A program made the position numbers and the translations under genes. A DNA stretch of 64,000 nucleotides from Escherichia phage vB_EcoP-ZQ2, in the sequence record NC_070874.1; one strand, 5' to 3'. The notes beneath the pieces were generated by a model. That model did no database searches and had not been told where the DNA came from. It was given only the letters and a program-made list of their open reading frames with translations. Positions 22,625 to 64,000 of this stretch are shown in pieces. Within the stretch, counting starts at the first letter, position 1. Each line of letters starts with the position of its first letter.

Positions 22625-25600
22625 TTGAACAGGAATCATGCTATGTCAACATTTGACCGTCTGGCAGGTTTCGCAGACAGCATCACTACTGCTAAGCAAG
22701 TCGATGTCTCTACTGCAACCTCTCGGAAACAAGCTGAACAAGGGCAAAACCCTTTCCAATTAACCCCACAGAACGCCTACCAGTTACAGGCAGGTCGTGC
22801 CGGTGATTTAGGTGCTGGTGCATTTGACCCAGGTTCTATTCAGGCAGATTTTACTAATGCCTCTCCTCTTGAAATCATAAACAAGTATGGCAATGAGCAA
22901 GGAATGGACATTCTTAATGCTCGTGTCAATGCAGCTAATGCTGTTCGTCGTGATTTAACTAAGAGTCGTACATATGGTGAAGCACTTGGTGATACCCTTT
23001 CTGGTGTTGGTCTTGGTGTTGCTAATACCCTTGGGGGCATTGCTGCTCTTGGCACAGGCTTGGTCAATGATAATGCCGGGGCATCCATTGCTTCCGGTCT
23101 TGACTGGTTGAACAAAGGTGTACACAACCTACAGTCTGATGCACTGAATGCTCGTCGTAATGTAGTACAGAACCAGAACGTAATATCTGCACAGGAAAAC
23201 GAAAAACAATATAAGCAGGATATTGATAAAGGAGAAAGTGAACTCGTTGCTTCCTTGTCTCGTATTGGTCGGGATGCTTACGATTCAGTTGCTAATACTT
23301 TGTCCAATGGCATGGCTGCTACAGATGGTATTGCTGAAGGTGTTGGTTCACTGTTTACTGGTGGTCCACTTATCCGTGGTGTATCTGCACTTGGTAAAGT
23401 AATGGTAGGTGGGGATAAAGCTGTTAAGGGTATTACCTTAGCTGCTGAATTAGGTTATCGTCCTGCACGTATTGCACAGACTGCTGGTCGTGTTGCTGCA
23501 CCTGCTATAGCAATTGGTGGTATGGAAGCTGGTGGTGCATACCAACAGACTGCTAATGAAATTATGGAAATGCCATTCAGTGAACTGGCTGCTAAATCTC
23601 CTGTATACCAACAACATATTAAAGATGGTTTAACTCCTGAAGAAGCACGACGTCAGACTGCATCTGAAACAGGTATCACTGCTGCTGGCTTAACCGCCCC
23701 AGTTGCTGCTCTCACTGGTCCACTGGTATCCAAGTTTGAACTTAACCCACTTAAGGTAGGTTCACTGGCTGGTGCTGGTTCTAACATGCTACGTGAGACT
23801 GTGGAGGAAGGTATTCAATCCGGTTTCGGTCAATTCGCACAGAACAAAGCAATTCAGGGTAACGTGGATGCTAATCGTGATTTGCTTAAAGGTGTAGGTG
23901 AACAAACTGGTCTAGGTGCATTGTATGGCTTTGGTTCTGCTGGGGTTGCTCAAGCTCCTGGTGTAACTGCTAAGACTGCCGTTGCTGCCGTTGGTCCTGC
24001 TGTACGTACTACCCTGGCTGGTGCTTCTCTGGCTGGTAAGGCACTAGCAAAAGTAGCTTCTCCTATTACTAACATTCTGGTTCAGCGTGGAGAAGAAGTT
24101 GCTAAGCGAAATGAGCAAGCATCTCCTGTATCAGACGTTACGGTTAATGCTGCTGCACAAGAAGCTACTGCTCAGGCAGAACAGGCTCAAGCAACTGTTC
24201 AGGAAGCAGTAGATGCAATGGACATTTCTCCAGAAGAGAAAGCTGCTGCTACTCAGTATGCTGCTGACTTAACTCAGGCAATGAAGTTTGACCCAGTAGA
24301 ACTGGAACAAGCTAGTCCAGCAATCCGTGAAGCTGTTTCTGGTTCCACTAACCGTGTTGAAGCTATTCAGAAGATGGCTGACCTGGTTAATACTGCCGAA
24401 GATCCTAACGTTCAAATGGAAGCTGCAATCCAGATGTATGACAACATCATGTCTATGGATAGCTTCATTAACCGTGACCCAGGTGCATTAGCTAATCTGG
24501 AACAGGGTTCTCCTGCTGCTAATATTGTTGACCAGTTCTCCGGTCTGATGGCTAACGTTCAGAATACACCGAAGGTACTTCGTGCATTCCGTGCCATCCA
24601 TTCCATGATTCAGGAACAGGCAGAAGCAGGTAAACTGAAGGCTACTGAAGAAGCTAACCAAGCCCAAGCAAACAACATTGCTATGGCTGCTGATATGTCT
24701 CCAGAAGTACTGGATGCTGATTCAGTGAACATGGTTCTGAAACACGCAAGTGAAGGTAAGATTACGCTGGGGAATCGTCAGCGTGCTGCCCTGCAATCTG
24801 CTGCTGCTCTATTGCAAGGAGCACGAGAATTTGATGCTAAAGCAGAAGAGCTAGGCTTACGTCCTCAAGACATTGTTAGTAAACAAATTAAAACCGACGA
24901 ATCTCGTTCTAATGAAGGCCAGTACTCTGCGTTGCAACATGCTAAACGCATTCGTTCTGCGTATAACTCTGGTAACTTCGATTTGGCTTCCGCTTATCTC
25001 GATGACTTTATGAAGTTCGCCCAGCACATGCAGAATAAGGTCGGAGCGTTGAATGAGCATTTGATTTCTGGGAATGCGGATAAGAATAAGTCTGTCCATT
25101 ATCAGGCTCTTACTCCCTCCCGTGAATGGGTACGTAGTCGTACTGGCCTCGGTGTTAATCCGTATGATACCAAGTCTGTTAAGTTTGCCCAGCAAGTAGG
25201 ACTGGAAGCCAAGACCGTAGCTGATATTGCTAACGCACTTGCTACGGCTTACCCGGAGCTTAATGTTTCTCATGTGAAAGTTACCTCATTGGATTCACGT
25301 CTGGACAAGCCTGCTGCCCAGGTAGTTAAAGAGTTCCGTCAGGGCAATCTTGACGCTGCTCAATCCCAACAGACTAATGAACCAGTGAATCAGGTTGATG
25401 AAACTCCTGTTACAAAACAGGAACCAGTTACCCCTACTGTACAGACTAAACCCTCTGTTAGTGAAGCTGTTAAAACAGAACCCACTATTAAAGAGTCTAA
25501 ACCACAGTCTGTAAAAGAACCTGAGAACCAGTCTGAAAAACAGGATACCGTTGATCAGTCTACTGAATCTGAAAGGGATGCTTATGTAAAAGAGAATACT

Positions 25601-28600
25601 ATTTCTCAAGATACTCTTAATAAGTATGGCGACCGTAAAGAGAGTCCATGGCTCTTTGCTGATGGTACTGTTGTTGGTTCTAATGGTGACCACATTAGCT
25701 TGTCCGATGTATTTGGACATGATGGTTATCGTGATATGTCACTAGATACAGGTGCTATTCGCTCTACCTTCTACAAAGGAAGCGAGCAACCATTTGTATC
25801 ATTGCAACTGTTTGATAATCAGAAACTGACTACTGAACAGTTCAATACTGTTCAATCATTCGTAGAAGCAAACAATGCACTGATTCAGATTGGTGTAGAT
25901 ACATCTGGGCTTAATACCAATAACGTTGAGAAAGAAGAAGTATCACTGGCTCAATTGAAAGCAGACTATACCGTTGGTGGTAAACCTCTATCTCAAATGG
26001 AAACAGTGTTCCCTGTCTATAACAATGAAAAGACACCGAACCAGTTCCTTAAAGCATTCTCTCTACCGGAAGAACCTAAGTCCCGTACCATTGGTTCTGA
26101 ATCTCCTTTGACTGATGTTAAGAAAGCACTGTCTTCTGTTGCTCGCTTTGAATCATTCACTCAAAAAGAAAATAACGCTCTCACAAGTGATGTGATTAAG
26201 CGTTACCAGGACTTATTTGATTTTGGTGAAACTCTGAAGACTACTCTGTCTGACCGTCTGGCTAAGTTCCTTGCTAACAAGAATGTTGGTAAACGTTTTG
26301 CAGAAGGTACTGAGGCTAACCGTTGGGTAGGTGGTAAATTACTTAACATCGTAGAGAAAGACGGAGATACCTTTAAGTTCAATGACCAGTTGTTAGAGAC
26401 TGCTGTACTTGCTGGTCTGCAATGGCGACTGACTGCTACACAGAATGCTGCCATTAAAGACATGCAGGATGTGGCTGCAATTACTGGTGTAAATGCTTCC
26501 TTGTTACCAGAAGGTATCCTTGCAGAGTTTGAGAATGCTCAAACCTTAGTAGAAGCTACTAACTCACTGGCTCAAAAGATTGAATCTTATTGGGGTCTTA
26601 ACCGCAATGCTGATGCACCTCTGGGCTATACCAAAGGTATCCCGATGGCAATGGCTACAGAGATTCTGTCTTCCCTTATTGAGATGGGTGAAGTTAAAGA
26701 GTCCATGTTGGATGTGTCTGAAATTGACTCAGAATCTAATAAGACCATTGGCCTGTATACCATTGAGAAGCTGGATGATACCGACGCCATTAACAAATTC
26801 CCTACTGCTATTGAGGAAGCTGTCCTCATAGAACCAGAAGAGAAACTGTACCTGGGTGATGACATTCCTTCCGTGGCTCCTACTCAGTTACGTAACCCAG
26901 CTGTTCGTAATACCCCAGAACAGAAAGCTGCTCTTAAAGCAGAACAGGCTACAGAGTTCTTTGTACATACCCCAATGGTTCAGTTCTATGAGGCGTTAGG
27001 TAAAGACCGTATCCTCGAACTGATGGGTGCTGGTACTCTGAATAAAGAATTACTTAACGAGAACCACGCTAAATCGCTGGAAGGTAAGAACCGTTCAGTA
27101 GAAGACTCTTATAACCAATTGTTCTCTGTTATTGAACAGGTAAGAGCACAGAGTGAAGACATCTCTTCTGTGCCTATTCATTATGCATACAATATGACCC
27201 GTGTCGGTCGTATGCAGATGTTAGGTAAATATACCCCCCAATCAGCTAAGCTGGTTCGTGAGGCTATCTTACCTACCAAAGCTACCCTGGATTTATCGAA
27301 CCAGAACAACGAGGACTTCTCGGGCTTCCAGCTTGGACTGGCTCAGGCATTGGGTATCAAAGTTCATAAAATGACTCGTGAAACTATGTCAGAAGAACTT
27401 ACCAAAGCTCTGGAAGGTAAGCTGAAACCTGCTGTAGATATGATGGTTGAGTTTGATAAGTCTGGATACTTACCTACTGATGCAGTGGATATCTTGAGAA
27501 CATCTCTGGGTAATGATAAGTCCTTTGTAGCTCTCATGGCTCTTATGGAGTATGCCCGTTACCTTAACAGTGATGACCGTGCCAACTTTAATACTCCTCT
27601 GTACGTTGAAGCTGATGGTGTAACCAACGGACCAATCAACGCAATGGTATTAATGACAGGTGGTAAGTTCACTCCAAACTGGATTAAGAATACTGCCAAA
27701 GGTGGTTTGTTCTTCGGTAAAGCCGGTAAGACTATGAATGAGCATCATACTCAGGATGATAGTGTTGACCTGTATGAAGCATCTACCAATAGTCTGCAAT
27801 TCCATCTGAATGAATTACGTAATACTTATAGTAAGAATATTCCTGTTATAAACCAGATGGACCATCTCCAGAAGTTAATGGACCTGTTCATCAAAGACTT
27901 CAATCTTAATGAAGATGGTACTCTGGACCTGAAACGTGGTATCGCTAAAAACCCACTAACCATTACTATCTATGGTTCTGGTGCTCGTGGTATTGCAGGC
28001 AAAATGGTAAGTGCAATTACTGATACCATCTACGAGCGTCTAAGCGACGTTCTGAAAGCCCGTGCTGCTGACCCTAACATTTCCCCAGCTATGGCGATGT
28101 TTGGTAAGGAGGCTGCGTCTGAAGCCGATGCTCAGGCTAAGCTGGATACTTTCCTTACTTCTATGAAAGAACTGACTGGCAAGATTCCAGCCAAACGTAA
28201 AGGTAGGTTATTTATTAAGGAAGTAGAAGGTGCTCTGACTGGCAAGTTAAATCCTCAGAAGTTTACCGTATCAGGGGATGCTCTGAAGAACTTACAAGAG
28301 AATATGCTGCACTTCTTTGTTGAGCCAATGAGACAAGGTATTCGGTTTACTGTTGGTGAAGGATTAATGCACTCTACTGAGAACTTGCAGAAGGCTACCC
28401 AGATTCAATCTCTGGTATTGCAGGATATGTTCCAGCAAGCAGTACAGGCTAAGCTGGCAGAAAAAGAAAAAGACCCAACATGGAAGAAAGGTGATTTCTT
28501 AACACAGAAAGAACTGAATGAAATTCAGAATAGCTTAGCTCCTCTGGCTCCAATGATTAAAACTGGTTCGCAGACTTTCTACATTGCTGGTAGTGAGAAT

Positions 28601-31600
28601 ACTGATGTTGCTAACCAAGTATTGGCTACTAACTTAGATGACCGTATGCGTGTACCAATGAGCATCTATGCTCCTTCGCAAGCAGGTGTTGCAGGTATTC
28701 CATTTATGACCATCGGTACTGGTGATGGCATGATGATGCAGACTCTTTCTACTATGAAAGGTGCTCCGAAGAATACCCTGAAAATCTTTGATGGTATGAA
28801 CATTGGTATTAATGACATTACTGATGCAAGCCGTAAAGCTAATGAGGCTGTATATACTTCCTGGCAGGGTAACCCTATCAAGAATGTATATGAGTCTTTC
28901 TCTAAGTTTGTTAAGAATGTTGATTTAAATAAGCTGTCCGATTCAGCAATAGATGCTATTGCAAAGTCTGCTTTAGACTTTGAGCAGCGTGCTCATATTG
29001 CCAGGGTAGATGGTGATAGAGATTATAAAATTTCTATGATTAGAGATTCTGGTATTGCATTAATTGAGCGTAACCTACGTAACATTGCTTTGGGTGTAGA
29101 TATTCGTCACAAGGTAATGGACCAGGTACAAGTCACTGTTGACCAGATGGCTGCTGTAGGTGCTCCTTATGTGAACAACGGTAAAATCTCTCTGGAAGGT
29201 CTGACTATAGACCAGCAAGTAGCCAAGCTGAACGAACTGTTTGATGCTGAATTAAACAAGCGTCGTGATGCAGTACGTGCTGCTAAAGCGGAACCAACGA
29301 AGGCAGAACCAGTGAAGGAAGTGCCGGTGAAAGTTGTACCAGCTATGGAGAAGGTAGGTCGTGTACTGAAGTCTGGTGTACGTCTGCTGTCTAATACTGC
29401 TATCACTAAGCTGGCTAAAGAAATGACCCCTGATCAGCAAGCAGTATTGAAAGAAATACAGAAATCCCTTGCTGCTAAAGACTATAAGGTTGTTTACGGT
29501 ACACCTTCTCAACTGGATGCTTATGCCATTGAGAAGAATATTACTCGCCCAGCACCGGAAGATATTGAAGCTGCTGAAGCTGGTAATGCATACGGCTGGA
29601 CTAACTTTGAAGATAAGACCATCTACTTAGTTACCCCTTCCTTAGAGACTCTGGTTCATGAATTAGTACATGCCTCTACTTTTGAATCTGTGCTGGCTCA
29701 CTACGAGGGTACTCCTAATGAAGCAGTCCAGAATATTGAAGACTTGATGAACCAGTTCCTTACTCTGGATGTTAAGGATGAATCTCCGGCAGTACGTGAA
29801 GCGTATGCCGATGCACTGAATACCATTAATGGTCACCTGTCTAATGGCTTCATTGAACCAGCAATGGCTAAAGCTGCTGCTCTGAATGAGTACATGGCTT
29901 GGGGTTTAACCAACCGTGAACTTATTAGTAAGCAGAAGAAAACCACTGCACTTAAAACTATGGTTCAGGCTGTATATGAAGCAATCAAACGTCTGGTATT
30001 TGGGCGTAAGAAAGCTCCAGCTAATGCAGATGATATGTTCTCAGGCTTACTGTTTAACTCTGCTGTAGTAATGCGTGGGCAGGCTCCTACTGCTGCTGTA
30101 GCTAAAGACACTACTCTGTTCCATAACAAAGCATACGGTAACAATACTCGTCTGGAAGAGTTAGGTAAGACCTTCGATAAACTAATTACTGACTACATTG
30201 GTTCAGAACCAGTACAGCAAGTAATTCGTAAAGGTAAGTTCTCTGATGCAGTAGTGAATGCAACTAAAGTAACTCGTGATGTTCAGGCTCATGGCTTCAC
30301 CATGAATATGCAGGAACAGCGTCTATTTACTAACATTGTTGCTGCACTTGCTACTGAGGCTGCTATTAACCCAGCAGCCATGGCTCGTGCACAGGAATAC
30401 TACACGCATGTTACTAAGAACTTGACCGTTGAAGCGTTCATGGCTGACCCAGATAGTACTAACCCTGCTGACCGTTACTATGCACAACAGAAGTTCGACA
30501 CCATCATGGGTGCTAACAACATTGAGTTTGATGCACAAGGTCGTTCTTCCTTACTGCCTACCTTTGTTGGTCTGGCAATGGTAAGTGAAGAGGTACGTAA
30601 GGTACTGGCTGATATTCCTGTTATGAAAGCAGATAAGAAATCAGGTAATACTGTTGACGCAATGCTGACTAACATCGGTACTGCTGCAATGGTTAGTCTG
30701 AATGCTCGTGTAGCAGGTGATACTAAAGCCACTAACGTGCGGGAAGGTATGGATGCACTGGCTCAGACAATTATGGAGACTAGCCTTAATGCACAATCTT
30801 TCTATGATTCCGTTGCTACCCCTACTGGTAATGCTATCGACCGTGCTAACCAATATCTGGTGGATTCTATTGATGTACTGTCTACTCGTACTTTGGAAGG
30901 TGCTCGTGAAGTTGCAGCTAATACCAAGAACCCACTAGTTAAAGGTGCTGCTCATGCTGCACAATTGGTAGCTGCTATTGCTACAGAGAAAAATGGTGCA
31001 ATTGTAGCTGAGGGTGTTATGGCTGCAATGAACCAGGGTAAAGTATGGCAACCGTTCCATGACCTGGTTAATGACATAATCGGTCGTACTAAGAGCAATG
31101 CTTCTGTATACGATTTGATTAAAGCAGTACGTGCACAGGTGCAAGCTGACCGTCAACAGTTCCGTGAGCATTTGCCTACCACTATCGCATCTAAGTTCAG
31201 CCGTAAGCTGACTAATGATGAGTGGAAAGCAATGCATACCGGTATGGGTAAAACTGACTTAGCTGTTCTTCGTGACACTATGTCTCTGGCTGAAATCCGT
31301 GACCTGTTGACTGACCAGAAGATTGTTGACCGTGAGGTTAATAAACTGGAAGCAGATTTGCAGAAGCAAGCCGGACGTAACTGGCCTCTGATTAGTCGTA
31401 AGTCTAAGCAACTGGCTCAGTACATGATTAATGGTACAGTCGGTAATAACCTGCTGCGTAATGCTACTGCAATTTCTCGTTTACTGGGTGAACGTAAGAC
31501 TACACGTTCTGTTGTAGATGTAGCACAACTGGATAAATTGATTACCCTGTATGCACTGGAAGCAATGAATAAGACTGACCGTGAGATGTTATCTTCACTG

Positions 31601-33460
31601 GCTCAGACAGAAATTGAAGGCATGGACTTTGCTATTTCTTACCTGGTTGGTCAGCGTAAAGATGAAATGGCTAAAGCTAAATCTGATAGCCGTGCAACCT
31701 TGAACCAGTACAAAGGGTATATTCCCGGTGAGACTAAACAGGGTGTTAATCTGATTGTTGCTGAAGATAATCAGTTTGCTGATTTGATTGAGAAATCCTA
31801 TGTACGTCTGGGTACTTATCAGGGTAGCTCTGCTAACCGTGGTCCAGCACGTAGCTACTACTTTGCACCAGTACAGGCACAGGCTCCATTCTCACAGGGT
31901 ATTCTACAGAACGTTCGTAATACTGCTGGTGGTGTAGACCTTGGTACAGGCTTTACGATGGGGACCATGGTAGCTGGTCGTATCACTGACAAACCTTCCG
32001 TAGACCGTATCACTAAAGCACTGGCTCGTGGTGAACGTGGTAATGAACCACTGCTGCCTGTATATGATACCAATGGTAATGTGGTTGCTTATGAGCAATC
32101 CATTGACCCAAGCATGCTGAAGCACATCGAGGGTGAGAACCATCTTGCTCGTGCAATCGGTGTATGGCGAGGTCGTCAGGTAGAAGAGGCTAAGGCTCAG
32201 CGTTTCAACGATATGCTGATTGAGAACCTGCATAGCATGTATGAGAACGACATTAAAATGTCTGCTTCTAATAAGTCCCAGTACGTTAACCTTCTTGGTT
32301 CTAAACTGGACCCAGTAACTGCTGATGCACTTAAGCTGATGAACAGTGAAACTCGTCAGAAAGCAGAAAGTCTGTTTGGCCCGGGTGAGCTATGGGTACG
32401 TCGTGACATGCTGAATGATGCACTAGGTTATCGTGCAGCTTCTGTTGGTGATGCCTGGTCTGGTAATTCTCGTTGGTCCCCAGAAACACTGGATACCTTC
32501 AAGAAAGCTATGCTGGGTGTCTTCGGTAACCGAGCCTATAAATATGTAATGGGTGGTGAGAACCTGGTTCAAAACTTAGTTAAAGAAGCTAAGACTCTAA
32601 TTGTAGTTAAGTCAGTAGTTGTACCTGCTGTTAACTTCCTGGCTAACCTTTACCAGATGGTTGCTCGTGGTGTACCTGTTAAGAACATTGCTAAGAGCAT
32701 TCCACAGAAGACTGCTGAGATTAATCAGTACCTGAAATCTCGCCTGCGTCAGGTAGATGCAGAAGCAGAATTACGTGCAGCTACTAACCCGAACCAGATT
32801 CGTAAACTTAAGGCTGAGATTCAATCAATCACTGATAGCCATAAACGTTTGAGTATCTGGCCTCTGTTAGAAGCTGGTGAGTTCTCTTCAATTGCAGATG
32901 CTGGTATTGGACGTGATGACATCCTGATTACTGAAGGTAAGATTCACGAATACATGGATAAGCTGGCTGATAAGCTGCCTAAGTCTGTACGTAACGCAGG
33001 TCGTTATGCACTTATCACTAAGGATACTGCTCTGTTCCAGGGTATCCAGAAGACGGTTGAGTACTCTGACTTTATCGCTAAAGCAATCATCTATGATGAA
33101 CTGACTCAGCGTAAAGGTAAGACTCGCGAAGAAGCACTGGGACGTGTAACAGAAGAGTTCATTAACTATGACCGTCTGCCAGGTCGCTTCCGTGGGTATA
33201 TGGAAAGTGTTGGTCTTATGTGGTTCTATAACTTTAAGATTCGTTCTGCAAAAGTTGCAGTATCCATGATTCGTAACAACCCAGTACATGCTGCTATGGC
33301 TATGTTGGCCCCAACCCCTACCATGTTTGGTAATGTTGGTCTGCCTATTAAGGACAACATCTTTAGTATTGCTGCACAGGGCAACCTCGGTTACTCCTTC
33401 GGATTCGGTATGGGCTTACGTGCCCATACCCTGAACCCGTGGCTCAACCTTACTAACTAA
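22625..33460 (+). CDS. virion-encapsidated giant RNA polymerase (N4 vRNAP-like)
   Basis: single 3611-aa ORF; central region with T7-like RNAP-type motifs (IYGSGARGI, FDGMNIG); position next to internal virion protein genes. Confidence 0.8.
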   Translation: MNRNHAMSTFDRLAGFADSITTAKQVDVSTATSRKQAEQGQNPFQLTPQNAYQLQAGRAGDLGAGAFDPGSIQADFTNASPLEIINKYGNEQGMDILNARVNAANAVRRDLTKSRTYGEALGDTLSGVGLGVANTLGGIAALGTGLVNDNAGASIASGLDWLNKGVHNLQSDALNARRNVVQNQNVISAQENEKQYKQDIDKGESELVASLSRIGRDAYDSVANTLSNGMAATDGIAEGVGSLFTGGPLIRGVSALGKVMVGGDKAVKGITLAAELGYRPARIAQTAGRVAAPAIAIGGMEAGGAYQQTANEIMEMPFSELAAKSPVYQQHIKDGLTPEEARRQTASETGITAAGLTAPVAALTGPLVSKFELNPLKVGSLAGAGSNMLRETVEEGIQSGFGQFAQNKAIQGNVDANRDLLKGVGEQTGLGALYGFGSAGVAQAPGVTAKTAVAAVGPAVRTTLAGASLAGKALAKVASPITNILVQRGEEVAKRNEQASPVSDVTVNAAAQEATAQAEQAQATVQEAVDAMDISPEEKAAATQYAADLTQAMKFDPVELEQASPAIREAVSGSTNRVEAIQKMADLVNTAEDPNVQMEAAIQMYDNIMSMDSFINRDPGALANLEQGSPAANIVDQFSGLMANVQNTPKVLRAFRAIHSMIQEQAEAGKLKATEEANQAQANNIAMAADMSPEVLDADSVNMVLKHASEGKITLGNRQRAALQSAAALLQGAREFDAKAEELGLRPQDIVSKQIKTDESRSNEGQYSALQHAKRIRSAYNSGNFDLASAYLDDFMKFAQHMQNKVGALNEHLISGNADKNKSVHYQALTPSREWVRSRTGLGVNPYDTKSVKFAQQVGLEAKTVADIANALATAYPELNVSHVKVTSLDSRLDKPAAQVVKEFRQGNLDAAQSQQTNEPVNQVDETPVTKQEPVTPTVQTKPSVSEAVKTEPTIKESKPQSVKEPENQSEKQDTVDQSTESERDAYVKENTISQDTLNKYGDRKESPWLFADGTVVGSNGDHISLSDVFGHDGYRDMSLDTGAIRSTFYKGSEQPFVSLQLFDNQKLTTEQFNTVQSFVEANNALIQIGVDTSGLNTNNVEKEEVSLAQLKADYTVGGKPLSQMETVFPVYNNEKTPNQFLKAFSLPEEPKSRTIGSESPLTDVKKALSSVARFESFTQKENNALTSDVIKRYQDLFDFGETLKTTLSDRLAKFLANKNVGKRFAEGTEANRWVGGKLLNIVEKDGDTFKFNDQLLETAVLAGLQWRLTATQNAAIKDMQDVAAITGVNASLLPEGILAEFENAQTLVEATNSLAQKIESYWGLNRNADAPLGYTKGIPMAMATEILSSLIEMGEVKESMLDVSEIDSESNKTIGLYTIEKLDDTDAINKFPTAIEEAVLIEPEEKLYLGDDIPSVAPTQLRNPAVRNTPEQKAALKAEQATEFFVHTPMVQFYEALGKDRILELMGAGTLNKELLNENHAKSLEGKNRSVEDSYNQLFSVIEQVRAQSEDISSVPIHYAYNMTRVGRMQMLGKYTPQSAKLVREAILPTKATLDLSNQNNEDFSGFQLGLAQALGIKVHKMTRETMSEELTKALEGKLKPAVDMMVEFDKSGYLPTDAVDILRTSLGNDKSFVALMALMEYARYLNSDDRANFNTPLYVEADGVTNGPINAMVLMTGGKFTPNWIKNTAKGGLFFGKAGKTMNEHHTQDDSVDLYEASTNSLQFHLNELRNTYSKNIPVINQMDHLQKLMDLFIKDFNLNEDGTLDLKRGIAKNPLTITIYGSGARGIAGKMVSAITDTIYERLSDVLKARAADPNISPAMAMFGKEAASEADAQAKLDTFLTSMKELTGKIPAKRKGRLFIKEVEGALTGKLNPQKFTVSGDALKNLQENMLHFFVEPMRQGIRFTVGEGLMHSTENLQKATQIQSLVLQDMFQQAVQAKLAEKEKDPTWKKGDFLTQKELNEIQNSLAPLAPMIKTGSQTFYIAGSENTDVANQVLATNLDDRMRVPMSIYAPSQAGVAGIPFMTIGTGDGMMMQTLSTMKGAPKNTLKIFDGMNIGINDITDASRKANEAVYTSWQGNPIKNVYESFSKFVKNVDLNKLSDSAIDAIAKSALDFEQRAHIARVDGDRDYKISMIRDSGIALIERNLRNIALGVDIRHKVMDQVQVTVDQMAAVGAPYVNNGKISLEGLTIDQQVAKLNELFDAELNKRRDAVRAAKAEPTKAEPVKEVPVKVVPAMEKVGRVLKSGVRLLSNTAITKLAKEMTPDQQAVLKEIQKSLAAKDYKVVYGTPSQLDAYAIEKNITRPAPEDIEAAEAGNAYGWTNFEDKTIYLVTPSLETLVHELVHASTFESVLAHYEGTPNEAVQNIEDLMNQFLTLDVKDESPAVREAYADALNTINGHLSNGFIEPAMAKAAALNEYMAWGLTNRELISKQKKTTALKTMVQAVYEAIKRLVFGRKKAPANADDMFSGLLFNSAVVMRGQAPTAAVAKDTTLFHNKAYGNNTRLEELGKTFDKLITDYIGSEPVQQVIRKGKFSDAVVNATKVTRDVQAHGFTMNMQEQRLFTNIVAALATEAAINPAAMARAQEYYTHVTKNLTVEAFMADPDSTNPADRYYAQQKFDTIMGANNIEFDAQGRSSLLPTFVGLAMVSEEVRKVLADIPVMKADKKSGNTVDAMLTNIGTAAMVSLNARVAGDTKATNVREGMDALAQTIMETSLNAQSFYDSVATPTGNAIDRANQYLVDSIDVLSTRTLEGAREVAANTKNPLVKGAAHAAQLVAAIATEKNGAIVAEGVMAAMNQGKVWQPFHDLVNDIIGRTKSNASVYDLIKAVRAQVQADRQQFREHLPTTIASKFSRKLTNDEWKAMHTGMGKTDLAVLRDTMSLAEIRDLLTDQKIVDREVNKLEADLQKQAGRNWPLISRKSKQLAQYMINGTVGNNLLRNATAISRLLGERKTTRSVVDVAQLDKLITLYALEAMNKTDREMLSSLAQTEIEGMDFAISYLVGQRKDEMAKAKSDSRATLNQYKGYIPGETKQGVNLIVAEDNQFADLIEKSYVRLGTYQGSSANRGPARSYYFAPVQAQAPFSQGILQNVRNTAGGVDLGTGFTMGTMVAGRITDKPSVDRITKALARGERGNEPLLPVYDTNGNVVAYEQSIDPSMLKHIEGENHLARAIGVWRGRQVEEAKAQRFNDMLIENLHSMYENDIKMSASNKSQYVNLLGSKLDPVTADALKLMNSETRQKAESLFGPGELWVRRDMLNDALGYRAASVGDAWSGNSRWSPETLDTFKKAMLGVFGNRAYKYVMGGENLVQNLVKEAKTLIVVKSVVVPAVNFLANLYQMVARGVPVKNIAKSIPQKTAEINQYLKSRLRQVDAEAELRAATNPNQIRKLKAEIQSITDSHKRLSIWPLLEAGEFSSIADAGIGRDDILITEGKIHEYMDKLADKLPKSVRNAGRYALITKDTALFQGIQKTVEYSDFIAKAIIYDELTQRKGKTREEALGRVTEEFINYDRLPGRFRGYMESVGLMWFYNFKIRSAKVAVSMIRNNPVHAAMAMLAPTPTMFGNVGLPIKDNIFSIAAQGNLGYSFGFGMGLRAHTLNPWLNLTN

Positions 33461-34175: not shown

Positions 34176-34556
34176 TCAGATTGTACAACCACCACCATCA
34201 CATGTATTGTTTTCTGCAAATGAAGCCAGAGCCTTAGCAGTCTCTTCTTTCTCATGCAGTGCCTGACGTAGCAGGTAACCCTCTAATTCCCAAATCTTAT
34301 TGAATGCATTTTCATATGCATACTGACGACCCTTCTGCTCATCATAGATAGCCGGGTCTACGCAGGCAGATACACCCTCAACTTTAAAGTTGTTTTCCAG
34401 AATGATTACACAATAGGTTACCAGACCCAGGTTAGCCAAATCATCTGCTGGAAGTGCAGAGGGGTCAACGAATGCAGACTTCACTGCGTCAGCACCATTA
34501 AAATAGTAGACGCTCTTAATCTTAGCTTCAATTGCTTCTTTACTTACTGTTGCCAT
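34176..34556 (-). CDS. hypothetical protein
   Basis: ORF 34176..34568; start moved to second ATG (MATVSK) which has a GAGG Shine-Dalgarno 7 nt upstream. Confidence 0.5.
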   Translation of the reverse strand: MATVSKEAIEAKIKSVYYFNGADAVKSAFVDPSALPADDLANLGLVTYCVIILENNFKVEGVSACVDPAIYDEQKGRQYAYENAFNKIWELEGYLLRQALHEKEETAKALASFAENNTCDGGGCTI

Positions 34557-34611
34557 TATTAACCTCATAGAGTGGTTTGAATTTGTACTTAAACATGATT
34601 GTGCTTATTAG

Positions 34612-34645
34612 TACTCAAATAAAAAAGTCCCTCCGAAGAGGGACT
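34612..34645 (-). terminator. rho-independent terminator (minus strand) closing the tRNA/non-coding region
   Basis: minus strand AGTCCCTC-TTCG-GAGGGACT followed by TTTTTTATTT. Confidence 0.7.
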
Positions 34646-34872
34646 TAGTAGCTTTAACGCAGCTAACGAGGCTAGGCCAGTTAACTATTACCACCGGTGC
34701 TTGTACCAGCAAACAGGATTGATAGTCCGATAATAGATAACTGTATTTGAGCATTATAGTCTACTCATACTCACACCGATAGGTATGTTTTCAATAGCTA
34801 GAGTGCCGGACTGTCTCACCGGCATTGTCTTTAGAGTGCAATGCAATCAGGACTATGTTCTCTATTAATGAG

Positions 34873-34946
34873 TACCCACTACTGGATTTGAACCAGTGAC
34901 TTTCCAATTATTAGTTGGTTGCTTTCCCCGTCTAAGCTAAGTGGGC
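34873..34946 (-). tRNA. tRNA, 74 nt, anticodon read as AAU (Ile-type, atypical A34)
   Basis: hand-folded cloverleaf: acceptor GCCCACT/AGTGGGT (one G-U), D-stem GCTT/AAGC, anticodon stem CCAA/TTGG with loop CTAATAA, T-stem ACTGG/CCAGT with loop TTCAAAT, discriminator A. Confidence 0.6.
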
Positions 34947-36031
34947 ATAATGGGTGAGTCATGCCAGACTTTAACTGGCTCCTTCTTCGCAATCCTTACA
35001 TACCCCTACATAATTATTGCGTTAAGCTTTTTTGTTTAAGTTTAAGTGAAGGCGTTCTTGCTGACTCATAATAGGGTGGGCGTTTGACGAATGACTAGTT
35101 CGTTACTACCCATTTGCCATAAGTACCTGGCGACTTCGGATAACGGGGGATGGAATCGAACCACCAGTATTAAGTCTTATTCGTGCACCAAGCACGCTAG
35201 TAGATTACTCTACCGGAGGGAATCGAACCCCATCTACTTCACCAGACCCGTCATAATTCTTACAATTCAAAGTAGCACTGCTCCATGTTTGGCCTTTGAA
35301 CTCCGGGATGGATTAGTACAATGCTACTTTGAATTAATTGCCAGGGATTCCACCTGGCTCCATCTGTTTTTATAGTCACTCAGATATCGTCTGGACTTTG
35401 ATAGCACAACCTATCAAAGAGTACACTAAGCACAGGTAGCTATCCTGCCGTCTTCTCCACCTACACCGGCTACAGTGTAGACCTCCGCACGTTAGCTTAA
35501 TGTACTCATTGATAGGATGTCATAATAGGGGAGGGAGGACGAGTCCCTCTTTACCCTATGATTTAGTTTACATGTAAGACCTAACATTTCAATGCTGGAT
35601 GAATAGCGTAATGAACTATCCGACATTAATGATTAATGTTGTGCTCAGCATGAGCGTTAGTTTGATAAGGGATCTGAAGCCTTACCCCAAAGATACTAAC
35701 CTTTGGGGTATAGCCTAAGATTCAGAAATGGCCCCCCATATAGAGAGAGGCCATTGATTAACCCGAATGTTGCTTTACATTTTCTGTGATAACCCATTCT
35801 TAAAATAGTCTGACTGACGGATGGGGGGCCACCCCTAGCGTCAGTGCCATACGGCAAAGATTAAGTTAAGAAAGGTTATGATAGGAGTTCCTATCTCAAA
35901 GGATTCTAACAGAACCCTTCACGATATTAACTACTCACTGTGAAATTCTTTGTTTCCTTCAACAGGTTCTACACCCAAGAAAAAGCTAACTTTTCACTTA
36001 GTTTAGATTGAACCAACGGACTGGGGAGAGT

Positions 36032-36529
36032 TTATCTCCCATGGCGTAAGGTGTAGTTGTGATTCTTTACCAGGTCTGCTTCTATAGTAGCCCGGTATGC
36101 TATAGCAGCATCTTTGGCTTCGCTATCCCCAAGAACACCAATGTTGAAGCTTTTAGTTCGTAGCTTACCTGTATGCGGATCATTCCAAGCAGCAGTCCAA
36201 TATTCGTTGGTCTTCTTCCATTGTCTATACACACCGGTAGTGCCTGATGTATTGTCACTTCTTTTGCGACGATTGCGACAGTTAATCATATGGGACACTA
36301 GTCTCATATTAATAAGTCGACAATCGGTTGGGATTCCATTGATGTGGTCAACTTCATACCCATCCGGGATTGGTCCATTATAGTATTCCCAAATCCAGTT
36401 GTGCAGAAATACCCTCACCCCATGACGTTTAATACGGATGTACCCATCCTTTGCATTGGCATCATCGGGAGAATGTACTACAGCGAGTTCATGGGCAGGT
36501 TTATTCCAGTATCCTAATGGCTTGCTCAT
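36032..36529 (-). CDS. HNH homing endonuclease (HNH plus AP2-like DNA-binding region)
   Basis: ...YEVDHINGIPTDCRLINMRLVSHMIN...TSGTTGVYRQ... typical free-standing phage HNH. Confidence 0.75.
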   Translation of the reverse strand: MSKPLGYWNKPAHELAVVHSPDDANAKDGYIRIKRHGVRVFLHNWIWEYYNGPIPDGYEVDHINGIPTDCRLINMRLVSHMINCRNRRKRSDNTSGTTGVYRQWKKTNEYWTAAWNDPHTGKLRTKSFNIGVLGDSEAKDAAIAYRATIEADLVKNHNYTLRHGR

Positions 36530-39405: not shown

Positions 39406-41559
39406 TTACTTGCCAGCGAAGCGTTTAGCCACGGTGACCATTACGGTTGCATTCAATTCATCATCTGGTAATGGATTAGCCAGTTTCTTATTGAATGAGT
39501 GGACGGCTTGCTGTACTTGGGCAAAGTCCCAACCACTGTCAACCAATGCCAGTGCGTACTTAATCATTTGATTATTACGATTACCGGTAGCAATACGACT
39601 AGCGAACCAACGCTCCAGATTATCCAACGACTGTACTTCCTTCATCTGGTTCCGGAACTGCTCGTTCTTACTAGTACGAGGAATAAAGTCACGCACGTCC
39701 AACAGATTTGCTTCAAGATTGTAATGATAGGAACCAGTCTCACAGGACATCCATTTCTTGGCTCGTTGGTTAGCAGATTCATCCGTTTCGAACGGTAGCC
39801 AAGACATAACGTTATTCATGAACTCTTTGTATTCCTCGGTGTCGAGGTGTAACTCATAGTTCATTGGAATAATCAGTCGGAATCGGTTCTCTTCATCAGA
39901 ATGACGCTTAGTGGTATAGGTCATGAACTTATATTCCTTCATCAGTTCATGGCACGTATGCAGTGGTACTCCACCATCACAGTCAATAACAATCATGTTA
40001 AATCCTGGAATAACGTTCTCTTCGGAACGATGGCCATTTTTCATGTGATGGTTTACCCAGTGCATACCGGGAGCTTGGGTTAATACATGCAACTGGTCGA
40101 ACGGTACACGTTCACCAATGTAGTCATAAGCAAAGCTATCACTATATGCCACTATCATCTCATTGATGTCAGTCTCTTTCAGAGTTTCCCCACGGAAGAA
40201 CTCAATACCTTCATTGAAGGTTTTCTTAATGATGATGTGCTGTTTGTAACCCCATGCTGTAGCAAGGGTCATCATCTCATTACGGGCTGCATTACCACTC
40301 TTATAGAACGGCAATGACTCCAACAAATCAGCATGAGTCACTTCTTTACCTACAGAGGCAATGTACTTAGCCAGCTTCACATAGGCTTTCTCACGATTGA
40401 GAATACCCTGGAATGCTGCCCCGGATTCCTCTACAAGCAGGATTGCTTGTTTAAGGTGAGACATCTCAATGAATGAACTCTGGTCAACAAATGCCAGTGC
40501 CCCAGCCAGTTTAAGTGCTTTGAAGTAACGGTGTTTTATTTCATTTTTACGGATTTCTTCATGGTCTGACATAGCTGCTGCTTGTTTATCACAGTCAACT
40601 TTATAGGCCATTGCTGCAATGCCTACATCGTCTTCTACAACCATCCTATAACCGAATAAGTTTGGGTCAGCTAAATCATGAAATTTATTTGCCCATTTAC
40701 TAACAGTAATATTGTTATCCGTTTTAATGAGATTTCTGTAAATTTCTTCTGGAGTCATACTCACAAAAGCTTGTTGGTCTACTTGACCAATTGCAAATAA
40801 GCAACGGCGAGCATAACCAGTATCCAGAAAATCATAGAATTGGTCTTCGATTTGACCACCATCTAACAGCTTACTTGGTGTACCAAAAAGTAGCAGATTA
40901 GTAGGAGTCTTACCGTCCAGTTCTTCCCCTCGCTGGCTCTCGGCAGTGTTCTTGGTCAGCTTCTGTTTAACCTTACCCTGGTCATATAATTCCAGGAACA
41001 GAGTTAATACGTCTGTGTTGGCCAACAGGTTTGAACCAATTTCATCAATCTGAAGGTTGATTGAACCACACCCAGCCATTAACAACTTGTGACGTAATTG
41101 TTTAACTGCTGGTGGAGTACCAGAGTCAAACGTAAACGGATATGCCCCAGCACGTTTATATTCTGCTTCAACTTTATCAAACTCATCATTCTGGTCTGTA
41201 CCCTGACGAGCAGCACGTTCGTTGGCAATCTTCCATAGGCGGTCATTTGCAATGACGGGCATGGTGTCTTCCATAAAACGTTTACGGAATCCAGACATAA
41301 ACCCGTCTTCAATGATATTTACTGAGTGACCTTTACCGAAACCAGATGTAGCCAACGCAATAGCGTAGATGTTTACCGGCAGGTCACCACGGTCTTTAGT
41401 TACAATGGTTGCACCCATGCAGGATGCCATTTTAGCCAAGAAGTAGGCTACTTCGACACGGAAAAATCCCCGGTCATTATTCTGGGTTTTATTGCAGAGC
41501 ACATCTACGATTTCTTCAATCGCCGGATGGTGACTGATGCCAGTAAGGTCGATACTCAT
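39406..41559 (-). CDS. putative DNA primase (N4 gp43-like position)
   Basis: 717 aa in replication module between SSB/ATPase and DNA polymerase; functional call by synteny and size. Confidence 0.45.
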   Translation of the reverse strand: MSIDLTGISHHPAIEEIVDVLCNKTQNNDRGFFRVEVAYFLAKMASCMGATIVTKDRGDLPVNIYAIALATSGFGKGHSVNIIEDGFMSGFRKRFMEDTMPVIANDRLWKIANERAARQGTDQNDEFDKVEAEYKRAGAYPFTFDSGTPPAVKQLRHKLLMAGCGSINLQIDEIGSNLLANTDVLTLFLELYDQGKVKQKLTKNTAESQRGEELDGKTPTNLLLFGTPSKLLDGGQIEDQFYDFLDTGYARRCLFAIGQVDQQAFVSMTPEEIYRNLIKTDNNITVSKWANKFHDLADPNLFGYRMVVEDDVGIAAMAYKVDCDKQAAAMSDHEEIRKNEIKHRYFKALKLAGALAFVDQSSFIEMSHLKQAILLVEESGAAFQGILNREKAYVKLAKYIASVGKEVTHADLLESLPFYKSGNAARNEMMTLATAWGYKQHIIIKKTFNEGIEFFRGETLKETDINEMIVAYSDSFAYDYIGERVPFDQLHVLTQAPGMHWVNHHMKNGHRSEENVIPGFNMIVIDCDGGVPLHTCHELMKEYKFMTYTTKRHSDEENRFRLIIPMNYELHLDTEEYKEFMNNVMSWLPFETDESANQRAKKWMSCETGSYHYNLEANLLDVRDFIPRTSKNEQFRNQMKEVQSLDNLERWFASRIATGNRNNQMIKYALALVDSGWDFAQVQQAVHSFNKKLANPLPDDELNATVMVTVAKRFAGK

Positions 41560-42071
41560 TTGATTAATCCTACGCTCTTATTAGTGACGGCATATTCTCC
41601 GAAGTATTTTACGGCAGCTAAGTCATACGCTTTGGCTGCTTCAATTGCTTCCAGGAATACACCTAAATGAATTGATTTACGGTTTACTTTGATTTTGGCT
41701 AAGTAGTTACCCCTGAACTTAGTAACACCCATAAAACCACTGGTATTGTTTTTATTCAGTCCACGGTTAGCACCATTGGTGCTTTTATCCGCTTCTCTTA
41801 GATTGTCTATCCAGTTGTGGTGACGTATGGTGTCTTTATGGTCTATTAAACCAGTAGGCCACATACCGTACACGTACAACCAAGCTAACCTATGAGCAGC
41901 TTCCCGTTTGGAATCAACTGTTATGTAGAGATAACCGTCACTGTTATTGAGCGACCCAGCAACACTACCGACAGGTGTTCGGTTACTGAGGGAGATGCGG
42001 CGAGTAAATATCCCAGTAAGTGGGTCATAATGCAGCAACTCTTTTAGCCGTTGCTGAGTCAGCTTAATCAT
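41556..42071 (-). CDS. HNH homing endonuclease (free-standing)
   Basis: ...HRLAWLYVYGMWPTGLIDHKDTIRHHNWIDNLRE...TSGFMGVTKF...; start set to the ATG forming an ATGA overlap with the upstream stop; stop also forms ATGA overlap with primase start. Confidence 0.7.
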   Translation of the reverse strand: MIKLTQQRLKELLHYDPLTGIFTRRISLSNRTPVGSVAGSLNNSDGYLYITVDSKREAAHRLAWLYVYGMWPTGLIDHKDTIRHHNWIDNLREADKSTNGANRGLNKNNTSGFMGVTKFRGNYLAKIKVNRKSIHLGVFLEAIEAAKAYDLAAVKYFGEYAVTNKSVGLIK

Positions 42072-57439: not shown

Positions 57440-57946
57440 TTATTTACTGCTTCTTGCAGCTACTGGTTTGTTTTCCTGGTTCTGATACTTGCCATTGTAA
57501 TTAGCAGGTTCTTGAACCAGATGAAATAATACTTGAGCTATCCCAGCACCAGCCGGGATATGTAATTTCTTACGACCATGATAGACCAGTTCAAGAGTCA
57601 AATACCCTTTCCATCCTGGTTCTATTACGGTATTGAATACTGATAATGCACGCCTTGCCCATGTAGACTTGTCGTGAACGATAGCTACACAGGAAGGGGA
57701 CATGTTAAACTTCTCAATTGCTGAAGCCAATGTGAACTTACCGAGATGTCGTGATACTTGATTTCCATCAACGACCTTCACCATTGGAATCAACCCAAAT
57801 AAGCGATAGAAGGTAATATCTTGTTTGATGCGAATATCATAACCAGCTTCACCCAATCCATAGCTTACACCATGCTCGGATATCTTACGGTCTGGGACAT
57901 CCAACAACTGAGATGAACGATATAGAGAATTACCATTAACAACCAT
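57440..57946 (-). CDS. dCTP deaminase (dUTPase-fold)
   Basis: GYDIR, EPGWKGYLTLEL and AGIAQVLF motifs characteristic of the dCTP deaminase/dUTPase family. Confidence 0.7.
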   Translation of the reverse strand: MVVNGNSLYRSSQLLDVPDRKISEHGVSYGLGEAGYDIRIKQDITFYRLFGLIPMVKVVDGNQVSRHLGKFTLASAIEKFNMSPSCVAIVHDKSTWARRALSVFNTVIEPGWKGYLTLELVYHGRKKLHIPAGAGIAQVLFHLVQEPANYNGKYQNQENKPVAARSSK

Positions 57947-62438: not shown

Positions 62439-63532
62439 AGAGAACTCTTGCCCCAGTACCTGAGACAGGATGAAGCCCAGCAAGTCACTCTTAGCAATGT
62501 CAGATAGAATCTGATTGTACTGACGACGCAGGTCATTACCGTAGTTAGGATGACATCTAAAACCATTAGTTAAACGAGTCGTTAGCTCGCCCTTACCTTC
62601 CATGATTAACATGGAAGCCATACGTAGCATCTGCTTCTTTACGAGCAAGCATTGCCTCCTCAAGTGTGTCATACGTACCCAGACCAATCTGTTTACGATT
62701 GACTGTGATGTGTGCCTGGAATCTACCAGAAGGCAATATTCTTACACCATTCACTTTGCTTGATGTATTACGTGATAAACCCATATTCATCTGGTTCTGT
62801 CTACTGGTTACATTTCTCAGATTAGACCAACGGTTGTCGTTTCTAATGTGATTGATGTGATCCACCTGGTTAGGTGTTTCCCCTGTTTCCATTATCCAGA
62901 TTATTCGATGCAGTAAGTACTCTTTACGACCCAGACTAACAGATAAATAGCCTTCTTTGTGAGGATACCCCACAATTGTTCCGGCTAATCCACTAGCAGA
63001 GTCGAAACGATGAGTTACTAGCCCACTTTCTCTGTCATACCTTAAAACCTTCTTCAAAGATTCTCGGGTAATGGTATCCAAGTCTTTTATCAGGTTCTTA
63101 CAGGTAGGGCATAGGTGGCCTATTGGACTCTTTTTAGCATCATAGAAGTTGCAAACAAACTCATTAGAGCATTGCTTACAACTACAGATAGCTGTGTACT
63201 TACCAGTTTTACGTAATATTTGGGAGTTATCTAACATATGGATTCCTTAGTAATTTTGCATACAATTTCAGATTGTATCCTAACCAAGGAAGTAAGTCTC
63301 CGGTTTTCACCGGAGTATCGGACTATATCATCACCCACTAATCAGTGGGGCAAGGCGCTTGGGTGGTCACTTGACTCACCTACTCTACTCACATACGAAA
63401 TGTTTTCGATAGTCTCTGAACCTTCCCTCATGGAGGGCTTGGCTGCTGATTGGCATATCCATAGGACTTAGCTTTCCAGCAATTCACCTTGTTTTCGACA
63501 CGGATTACTCCGTGAAGGATCATTTATGTTTA
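62439..63532 (-). mobile_element. group I intron with HNH homing endonuclease ORF, inserted in the RNA polymerase gene (boundaries approximate)
   Basis: on minus strand in order: P2-like GNRA hairpin (63499..63514), P element GAATTGCTGGAAAGC (63471..63486), Q CCAATCAGCAGCC (63441..63453), R GGTTCAGAGACTA (63407..63422), P8 hairpin (63334..63349), S GATATAGTCC (63320..63329), P9 hairpin (63298..63315), then HNH ORF. Confidence 0.7.
62593..63237 (-). CDS. intron-encoded HNH homing endonuclease with N-terminal CxxC zinc-finger-like motifs
   Basis: ...YLSVSLGRKEYLLHRIIWIMETGETPNQVDHINHIRNDNRWSNLRNVTSRQNQMN...; CSCKQC and CPTC at N-terminus. Confidence 0.75.
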   Translation of the reverse strand: MLDNSQILRKTGKYTAICSCKQCSNEFVCNFYDAKKSPIGHLCPTCKNLIKDLDTITRESLKKVLRYDRESGLVTHRFDSASGLAGTIVGYPHKEGYLSVSLGRKEYLLHRIIWIMETGETPNQVDHINHIRNDNRWSNLRNVTSRQNQMNMGLSRNTSSKVNGVRILPSGRFQAHITVNRKQIGLGTYDTLEEAMLARKEADATYGFHVNHGR

Positions 63533-64000
63533 ATCATGTACAGTCATTACAGGGAATGGTTTCTTAGGCAGAGTGTCAATCATATCTGCTACTACCTTAC
63601 GGTCTACCAATGCAATGGTATTCGGGTCAAGGTAGTCCAGAATAGACAGTGACAGGAACCCAGACTTCTCATAATGACTCCAAATTTCCATAGTCATTTC
63701 CTGGTTCCCTGCGATAGCAGGATAATTGCTTGGCCCGATATCACATAGTTCACGTACATAGGCAACCAGTTTAGGGTCGAAGTTACAACGACGCAGCATC
63801 TCACGTACCACCATCCCATCAATAGAGTGAGTGATGTTAGCAGAGAGCATACGGGTCTTTTCTTCAGTACCCTGAACCATACGAGTGATGTCAAATGGTT
63901 TACCTAAGAAGTTAACAGTCTGTACTTCAGGAACCATGACCTTAATGACAGCGTGGAAGTTGTCAGGAAGTACCCATACGTAACGGTTGGCATCCGGATT
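63530..64000 (-). CDS. T7-like single-subunit RNA polymerase (N4 RNAP II large subunit-like), 5' exon, truncated by window edge
   Basis: frame open to window end; ...YVWVLPDNFHAV... and ...ITHSIDGMVVRE... resemble T7 RNAP ...HWVTPDGFPVW... and HSQDGSHLR/HDSFG regions; in-frame stop at 63530 is at the proposed 5' splice region. Confidence 0.55.
   Translation of the reverse strand, partial: NPDANRYVWVLPDNFHAVIKVMVPEVQTVNFLGKPFDITRMVQGTEEKTRMLSANITHSIDGMVVREMLRRCNFDPKLVAYVRELCDIGPSNYPAIAGNQEMTMEIWSHYEKSGFLSLSILDYLDPNTIALVDRKVVADMIDTLPKKPFPVMTVHD

Follow-up and report, generated by a model that had tools for sequence, protein, structure and literature searches.

A conserved tRNA-Ile gene with an encoded A34 anticodon (AAU) in Gamaleyavirus coliphages: a candidate AUU-specialised decoder

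The 64,000-nt stretch of phage DNA analysed here (hereafter, the window) carries on its minus strand a tRNA-Ile gene with anticodon AAU, in which the wobble base A34 is encoded in the genome. The gene is real, and because it recurs in many related phages with substitutions that preserve pairing, it is more than a chance fold. We propose, at a probability of roughly 60%, that it is a functional accessory phage tRNA-Ile whose A34 stays unmodified and which would decode AUU specifically by Watson-Crick pairing.

With the exception of tRNA-Arg(ACG), bacteria and their phages almost never encode tRNAs with A34, a kind that reviews have termed 'prohibited' (PMC8007984), and very few natural tRNAs with an unmodified A34 are available for decoding studies (PMC11066159). 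Because encoded A34 is so rare, a conserved tRNA-Ile(AAU) of an E. coli phage represents a convenient natural test case, with which one could ask whether A34 is tolerated, charged and used, whether AUU is read faster through a Watson-Crick pair than through the host G.U wobble, and whether TadA gains access to the loop. The gene is of interest as a natural ANN tRNA, both rare and conserved, in a model host. As such it is no discovery, since several GenBank records and one paper contain it already: it is annotated as 'tRNA-lle(aat)' in Bp4 (RefSeq label tRNA-Xle), as 'tRNA-Ile' in ECBP1, PhAPEC5, Moonfish, PBM-3, UE-M6 and ST4 and as 'tRNA-Ile-AAT' in SP5M, and it was listed, without analysis, in 2025 (PMC11927229). 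We found no functional work on a tRNA-Ile(AAU) of any phage in the literature, including work on expression, processing, charging or modification.

The window derives from a Gamaleyavirus, a G7C/Bp4-like member of the N4-like coliphages. The 3.2 kb around the tRNA are 84-94% identical to Escherichia and Shigella Gamaleyavirus genomes, and a 3611-codon ORF at 22625-33460 (+) corresponds to the Gamaleyavirus virion RNA polymerase.

Structure and conservation of the tRNA gene

The gene and its parts, all on the minus strand, are the following.
34873..34946 (-): tRNA-Ile(AAU) gene (74 nt; G1 at 34946, discriminator A73 at 34873); ARAGORN, Rfam, minimum-free-energy fold, orthologues in 29 loci
34908..34914 (-): anticodon loop C32-U33-A34-A35-U36-A37-A38; read from the sequence, invariant in 17/17 distinct variants
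34912-34910 (-): anticodon AAT, i.e. A34-A35-U36; read from the sequence
34947..34954 (-): 5' leader CCCATTAT, directly before G1; similar leaders in relatives
34863..34872 (-): 3' trailer CTCATTAATA; read from the sequence

The initial annotation had placed a phage tRNA at 34873-34946, with no strand given, and had described it as the only clean cloverleaf of the region. Consistently with this, ARAGORN called tRNA-Ile(aat) at 34872-34946 (-) and no further tRNA in the entire 64-kb window, and the Rfam tRNA family RF00005 matched 34873-34946 (-) at E = 4.9e-11, its score of 62.0 bits lying above the gathering score of 29, so that both confirmed the tRNA and assigned it to the minus strand. The cloverleaf was also the minimum-free-energy fold of the isolated 74 nt. 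Direct reading and ARAGORN agreed on the anticodon AAU, the loop CUAAUAA and the encoded A34 that had been claimed, and neither program proposed another anticodon register in the window or in 13 relatives.

The minus-strand RNA reads GCCCACU-UA-GCUU-AGACGGGGA-AAGC-A-ACCAA-CUAAUAA-UUGGA-AAGUC-ACUGG-UUCAAAU-CCAGU-AGUGGGU-A and contains every element of the RF00005 family, namely a 7-bp acceptor stem, a D arm, an anticodon arm with a 7-nt loop and a T arm. The acceptor stem GCCCACU/AGUGGGU includes G1.U72 and is followed by the discriminator A73; the D stem is GCUU/AAGC and the T arm ACUGG-UUCAAAU-CCAGU. The anticodon stem ACCAA/UUGGA contains an A27.A43 mismatch, which had been noticed before and which we found to be invariant in all 17 variants. 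Read directly from the minus strand, the nucleotides of the usual tertiary interactions are present as well (U8, A14, G18-G19, A21, U33, the T-loop UUCAAAU and G15-C48). The gene lacks CCA, with CUC following A73; in relatives A73 is followed by CTT, CCC, CAT or TCC, and in SP5M by CCA. As CCA is unencoded in the window copy, the transcript would have to be trimmed at its 3' end and completed by the CCA-adding enzyme of the host. A match on 34872-34946 (+) covers exactly the antisense strand of the gene and was therefore taken as a side effect of the tRNA rather than a separate element.

Conservation was assessed in 29 loci from GenBank phages, IMG/VR and metagenome contigs, which comprised 17 distinct sequences. 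Among the 17, no variation occurred in CUAAUAA, the anticodon loop, in the T arm or the D stem, or at positions 8, 9 and 26. Stem cells were paired in 95% of cases, the only disruptions being the constant A27.A43 and one A1.C72, and three pairs had undergone compensatory double changes: 2-71 (C-G/U-G/U-A), 29-41 (C-G/U-A) and 30-40 (G-C/A-U, with A-U found only in the window copy). The observed covariation score was reached by none of 500 shuffles, and sliding the partners by 1 to 3 columns abolished pairing. Mean pairwise identity of the tRNA was 95%, with 14 variable columns of 74 and no indels, as compared with 51% and 67% in the 120-nt flanks, where nearly all columns were variable. Judged by these alignments, the tRNA-Ile(AAU) gene is not a pseudogene and is under purifying selection for structure. 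The 95% identity marks the family as young, and recency could explain part of the conservation, though divergence in the flanks is much greater.

The constancy of the loops, the compensation within stems and the excess of conservation over the flanks speak against the earlier suggestion of a pseudo-tRNA or a tRNA-like regulatory element. They also bear on the idea that the gene is a passenger, neutral or in decay, derived from an AUA-reading tRNA-Ile(CAU) that a C34-to-A change inactivated and that survives in a decaying tRNA array. Such a passenger would fit the general avoidance of ANN anticodons in bacteria and phages (PMC8007984), the loss or remodelling of tRNA-Ile(AAU) in several lineages and the degenerate 'Cys(aca)' and 'Ala(cgc)' modules, with poor stems, that surround the gene in relatives. 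We nonetheless consider it improbable, given the constancy of loops, T arm and D stem, the preservation of pairing by stem substitutions, three of them compensatory, the strong conservation relative to the flanks, and the high Rfam score of 62-66 bits, as opposed to 41-43 bits for a neighbouring odd tRNA of relatives.

Isoleucine codons, the wobble base and charging

The host decodes AUU solely through the G34.U3 wobble of tRNA-Ile1(GAU). Isoleucine codon usage differed between the phage and a sample of host genes as follows.
Phage (48 ORFs, 19,202 codons): ATT 62%, ATC 27%, ATA 11%
E. coli (51-gene sample, 14,798 codons): ATT 48%, ATC 49%, ATA 3%

ATT is the fourth commonest codon of the phage, and its ATT/(ATT+ATC) ratio of 0.70 is the highest U-bias among the NNY pairs. 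Virion genes are rich in ATT and avoid ATA, with ATT/ATC/ATA counts of 16/7/0 in the capsid gene and 18/0/0 in the adjacent 406-aa gene. Supplementation of isoleucine decoding, as proposed earlier, is the best-supported role of the candidate tRNA.

Which codons the tRNA would read depends on the state of A34, which the initial annotation had supposed might be deaminated to inosine and thus read AUU, AUC and AUA. This would take off-target activity of host TadA during infection, or else an unrecognised phage factor, and the resulting tRNA-Ile(IAU) would resemble the eukaryotic one, reading AUU and AUC as well as AUA, which is rare in the host, with no need of lysidine synthesis. The phage loop CUAAUAA shares C32, U33, A34, A37 and A38 with CUACGAA of the TadA substrate tRNA-Arg2 and differs from it at positions 35 and 36, so that U33-A34-A35-U36 stands where the TadA substrate has U33-A34-C35-G36; in E. 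coli, every TadA-dependent edit falls within UACG (PMC13170351). Previous work on ANN-anticodon tRNAs in E. coli found a non-cognate tRNA with an AUG anticodon to be half-modified by TadA (PMC5137457), which counts in favour of inosine, as do the loop positions shared with tRNA-Arg2, the higher share of AUA among isoleucine codons in the phage than in the host sample (11% against 3%) and the fact that the nearest tRNA relatives are AUA decoders. The avoidance of ATA in abundant virion genes points the other way.

More directly, Schmitt, Tittle and Fisk (2024) expressed in E. coli an archaeal tRNA with every ANN anticodon, set in a loop whose flanking bases (C32 U33 / A37 A38) are those of the phage tRNA (PMC11066159). 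The AAU version of this M. jannaschii tRNA has the loop CUAAUAA, and cDNA sequencing revealed no inosine in it; decoding amounted to 4.5% on AUU, 0.43% on AUC and 0.27% on AUG and was below detection on AUA, so that AUU was read about 10-fold better than AUC (PMC11066159). This engineered tRNA is identical to the phage case in its 7-nt loop and its host and provides the sole direct measurement of such a loop in E. coli, but it differs in having an archaeal body, in carrying tyrosine from an orthogonal synthetase and in not being a natural gene.

We also searched for a deaminase of the phage itself. The zinc-deaminase motif [HC][AV]E...PCxxC was absent from the six frames of the window and from the complete Moonfish genome, whose annotation contains no deaminase either. 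Of the 51 ORFs with 90 codons or more, a Pfam scan covered all except the one for virion RNA polymerase; its only 'deaminase' was a dCTP deaminase of the dUTPase fold at 57443-57946, and the 50 ORFs held no RNA-modifying domain. No CDA-type or other RNA adenosine deaminase occurred among the Pfam families of the window ORFs, several of which have no family, about 8 kb of the phage lying outside the window. The encoded anticodon is the same as that of eukaryotic cytosolic tRNA-Ile(AAU), which becomes IAU through ADAT2/ADAT3; this eukaryotic tRNA is deaminated quantitatively by a heterodimeric enzyme absent from bacteria (PMC8007984), whereas no deaminase is evident in the phage, and no sequence relationship was found between the two tRNAs. 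With TadA confined to UACG, the same loop free of inosine in E. coli and no CDA-type deaminase found in the window or in Moonfish, inosine formation at A34 is unlikely, and we give the inosine reading as a whole a very low probability.

The identity elements of E. coli IleRS reportedly comprise A73, C4-G69, U12-A23, C29-G41, A35, U36, (t6)A37 and A38, as described by Nureki et al. in 1994. By direct reading, those outside position 34 are all present in the window sequence; in one relative (L024), C29-G41 is replaced by U-A. Position 34, as G34 or lysidine, is itself an IleRS identity element, so that the A34 found in all 17 variants, in place of either, may lower charging. The U36-A37 sequence predicts t6A37.

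The reading that we favour, a tRNA-Ile with unmodified A34, can be formulated as follows. The tRNA would be transcribed within a minus-strand early/middle transcript ending at the terminator at 34646-34625 (listed below), cleaved at its 5' end by RNase P, trimmed and provided with CCA at its 3' end, modified to t6A37 and charged by host IleRS. A34 would stay unmodified in E. coli, reading AUU by a Watson-Crick A-U pair, AUC weakly and AUA not at all, and the tRNA would boost decoding of AUU, the dominant isoleucine codon of the phage. Our own analysis contributes to this model the folded gene, how it is conserved and which of its stem changes are compensatory, the bias in isoleucine codons, the similarity to CAU/UAU-type tRNAs described below and the finding of no recognisable RNA deaminase; the unmodified A34 and the preference of about 10:1 for AUU over AUC are taken from the published work, in which this loop sits on another tRNA body. 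The retention of A34 is puzzling for this model, as a tRNA with G34 could read AUU and AUC alike.

Relatives and probable source of the tRNA

The tRNA-Ile(AAT) genes of Gamaleyavirus genomes (Bp4, ECBP1, PhAPEC5, SP5M, UE-S5a/UE-M6, Moonfish) are orthologous and occupy the same site, between gp47- and gp48/49-like genes. They are 93-97% identical to the window copy, with identical anticodon loop, T arm and D stem. The window copy differs from the other 16 variants in its A30-U40 pair, which is G-C in all of them, and lacks the neighbouring tRNA-like modules that several relatives carry. In G7C and St11Ph5 the gene is missing through a clean deletion of about 78 bp. In HK2, pSb-1 and two metagenomic phages, its site is occupied by an 85-nt chimera (L008 2526-2610, L009 2526-2610, L036 and L038) with the same acceptor stem and T arm, a different D arm and a 24-nt insert that replaces the top of the anticodon arm; this chimera has no normal anticodon loop, yet scores 53.9 bits as a tRNA. 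On this distribution among the genomes, the tRNA-Ile(AAU) gene is accessory and dispensable.

Outside the genus, the nearest phage tRNAs have the anticodon CAU, in a T4-like phage of Aeromonas, or UAU, in a crAss-like phage. A search of 5,426 E. coli genomes gave as best matches genes that all bear the annotation tRNA-Ile and that occur in only about half of the genomes, typically once; the three that we examined were prophage- or plasmid-borne, with anticodon CAT and the PGAP label 'tRNA-Ile', i.e. of the lysidine type. These prophage and plasmid tRNA-Ile(CAU) genes are 70-76% identical to the phage tRNA, the closest similarity of the tRNA body that we found, and they share with the Bp4-type consensus the anticodon-arm core CGACU-N-AUAAUCG, in which the window copy has its compensating A30-U40. 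Identity to E. coli tRNA-Ile1(GAU) was only 60-62%, although both have A73, C4-G69, U12-A23, C29-G41 and A35-U36-A37-A38 and overlap in the codon AUU; with the host G34, AUU is a wobble codon and AUC forms a Watson-Crick pair, a preference that the phage A34 would reverse. An anticodon-arm plus T-arm pattern had no match when one genome per bacterial and archaeal species was scanned, and there is thus no evidence for a cellular source carrying AAU.

The simplest history on sequence grounds is that the gene probably descends from an AUA-reading minor tRNA-Ile, of the CAU or UAU type common in phages and prophages, with position 34 changed. These minor tRNAs have C or U at position 34 where the phage tRNA has A. 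Its anticodon being AAT and not CAT, the phage tRNA lacks the C34 that defines tRNA-Ile2 as a substrate of TilS; it therefore cannot be lysidinylated and should read AUU rather than AUA.

The same comparison weakens an anti-defence role, in which the tRNA would be a nuclease-resistant substitute or decoy for host tRNA-Ile and would owe its resistance to the altered wobble base and a shortened anticodon stem. Phage tRNAs do rescue cells from anticodon nucleases through changes in the anticodon arm (PMC10264068), and resistance to P2-OLD arises from a shortened anticodon stem (PMC12445682); here, A27.A43 leaves an invariant 4-bp stem, the gene lies in an accessory, fast-changing region, and its neighbours in relatives include a Tad2-like DUF2829 protein and 'anti-CRISPR' annotations. 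However, CAT-type tRNA-Ile of ordinary prophages and plasmids likewise has a non-Watson-Crick 27-43 pair (A.C, G.A), and the mismatch is therefore a trait of the lineage and no new adaptation. Moreover, a tRNA-Ile-specific defence nuclease was not found in the literature consulted, and an AAU tRNA would replace only part of the decoding capacity of GAU. Altogether we regard this role as improbable.

A broader proposal is that the conserved A34 is deliberate, either because an unrecognised activity would turn it, in the course of infection, into inosine or some other base, letting a single phage tRNA serve all three isoleucine codons without TilS, or because A34 and the 4-bp stem together would confer immunity to a hitherto undescribed tRNA-Ile-targeting defence. 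We think this unlikely; if true, in either version, it would be the first natural use of a 'forbidden' ANN anticodon by a bacterial virus for a specific purpose.

The mosaic non-coding region around the gene

The AUU-decoding candidate lies in a non-coding region with the following features.
34569..36031 (-): non-coding mosaic of cassette type, with no ORF over about 1.46 kb; ORF list, Pfam, BLAST mosaic against 17 relatives
34179-34568: gp49/gene-66-family ORF, one border of the mosaic region; ORF list, Pfam
36035-36529 (-): HNH endonuclease ORF, the other border; ORF list, Pfam
34625..34646 (-): hairpin AAGTCCCTCTTCGGAGGGACTT resembling an intrinsic terminator, with TTTTATTT after it, some 225 nt downstream from the tRNA; terminator scan
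34946-34954, 35067-35075 and 35521-35529 (all -): three copies of CCYATTATG, all within the non-coding region

In 34569-36031, tRNA-Ile(AAU) is the sole well-conserved element. Terminators are annotated in PhAPEC5 and G7C at the place equivalent to the 34625-34646 hairpin. The tRNA leader together with G1 forms the motif CCYATTATG, for which a pattern search gave three matches against 1.14 expected for the whole window, and the copies mark three module starts within 34569-36031. As a promoter the motif is doubtful: it abuts G1 of the tRNA and is too close for a sigma-70 -10 element; no consensus for N4 middle promoters was found in the literature consulted.

Extra tRNA-like modules are present in relatives, 'Ala(cgc)' exactly at 35522 and 'Cys(aca)' between 35408 and 35397, and their stems are poorly paired. 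In the window, ARAGORN detected no extra tRNA in the non-coding region, even with relaxed thresholds and in intron mode, and Rfam (E up to 10) nothing credible. The region looks like a decaying, recombining tRNA array. We considered the 'tRNA-Cys(aca)' of relatives as a second A34 tRNA and left it out as support, since the pairing of its acceptor and anticodon stems is poor and it is marked pseudo in the ECBP1 annotation.

The architecture of the region could also suggest that the gene is a non-translational tRNA-shaped element, for example a punctuation mark for RNA processing or a target of recombination or homing in a cassette region: modules come and go exactly at tRNA boundaries and have similar short motifs on either side (CCYATTAT upstream, CYCATTAAT downstream), and a gene for an HNH endonuclease adjoins the region. 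Such a structural or processing role would have no need of an invariant 7-nt anticodon loop or of the IleRS identity set, complete outside position 34, and we find it hardly credible.

Several relatives carry a second tRNA 9 nt upstream of tRNA-Ile(AAT), which is absent from the window.
Second tRNA: L010 2424-2499, L011 2417-2492, L012 2424-2496, L013 2417-2492, L014 2420-2492, L017 2322-2397

Its CCA is encoded, its acceptor stem and T arm are well formed and its Rfam scores are 41-43 bits, while its anticodon arm gives a 6-nt loop (AAACCA) or an 8-nt loop (UAAACCAA), for which ARAGORN gives a 2-base anticodon. This second tRNA could be of the frameshift type or non-decoding.

Within the window, the segment 35130-35350 (-) is conserved and structured (MFE -69.5 kcal/mol, z = -3.3), with no ARAGORN tRNA and no Rfam family. 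It holds a 19-bp hairpin at 35336-35264 and two T-arm-like GGTTCGATTCC motifs at about 35229-35219 and 35162-35152 (-), and may be a new small RNA or tRNA remnants.

The window contains three HNH_3 homing-endonuclease ORFs, at 36035-36529 (-), 41559-42071 (-) and 62596-63237 (-), of which two also have a DNA-binding domain of the AP2 type. The first lies at the edge of the mosaic tRNA region and may help to rearrange it. Directly upstream of the HNH_3 and AP2 ORF at 62596-63237 (-), we observed a group I intron at 63298-63541 (-) (full-length Rfam match, 91.8 bits), which probably interrupts the phage RNA polymerase II gene, since the equivalent place in Moonfish separates two 'RNA polymerase' ORFs.
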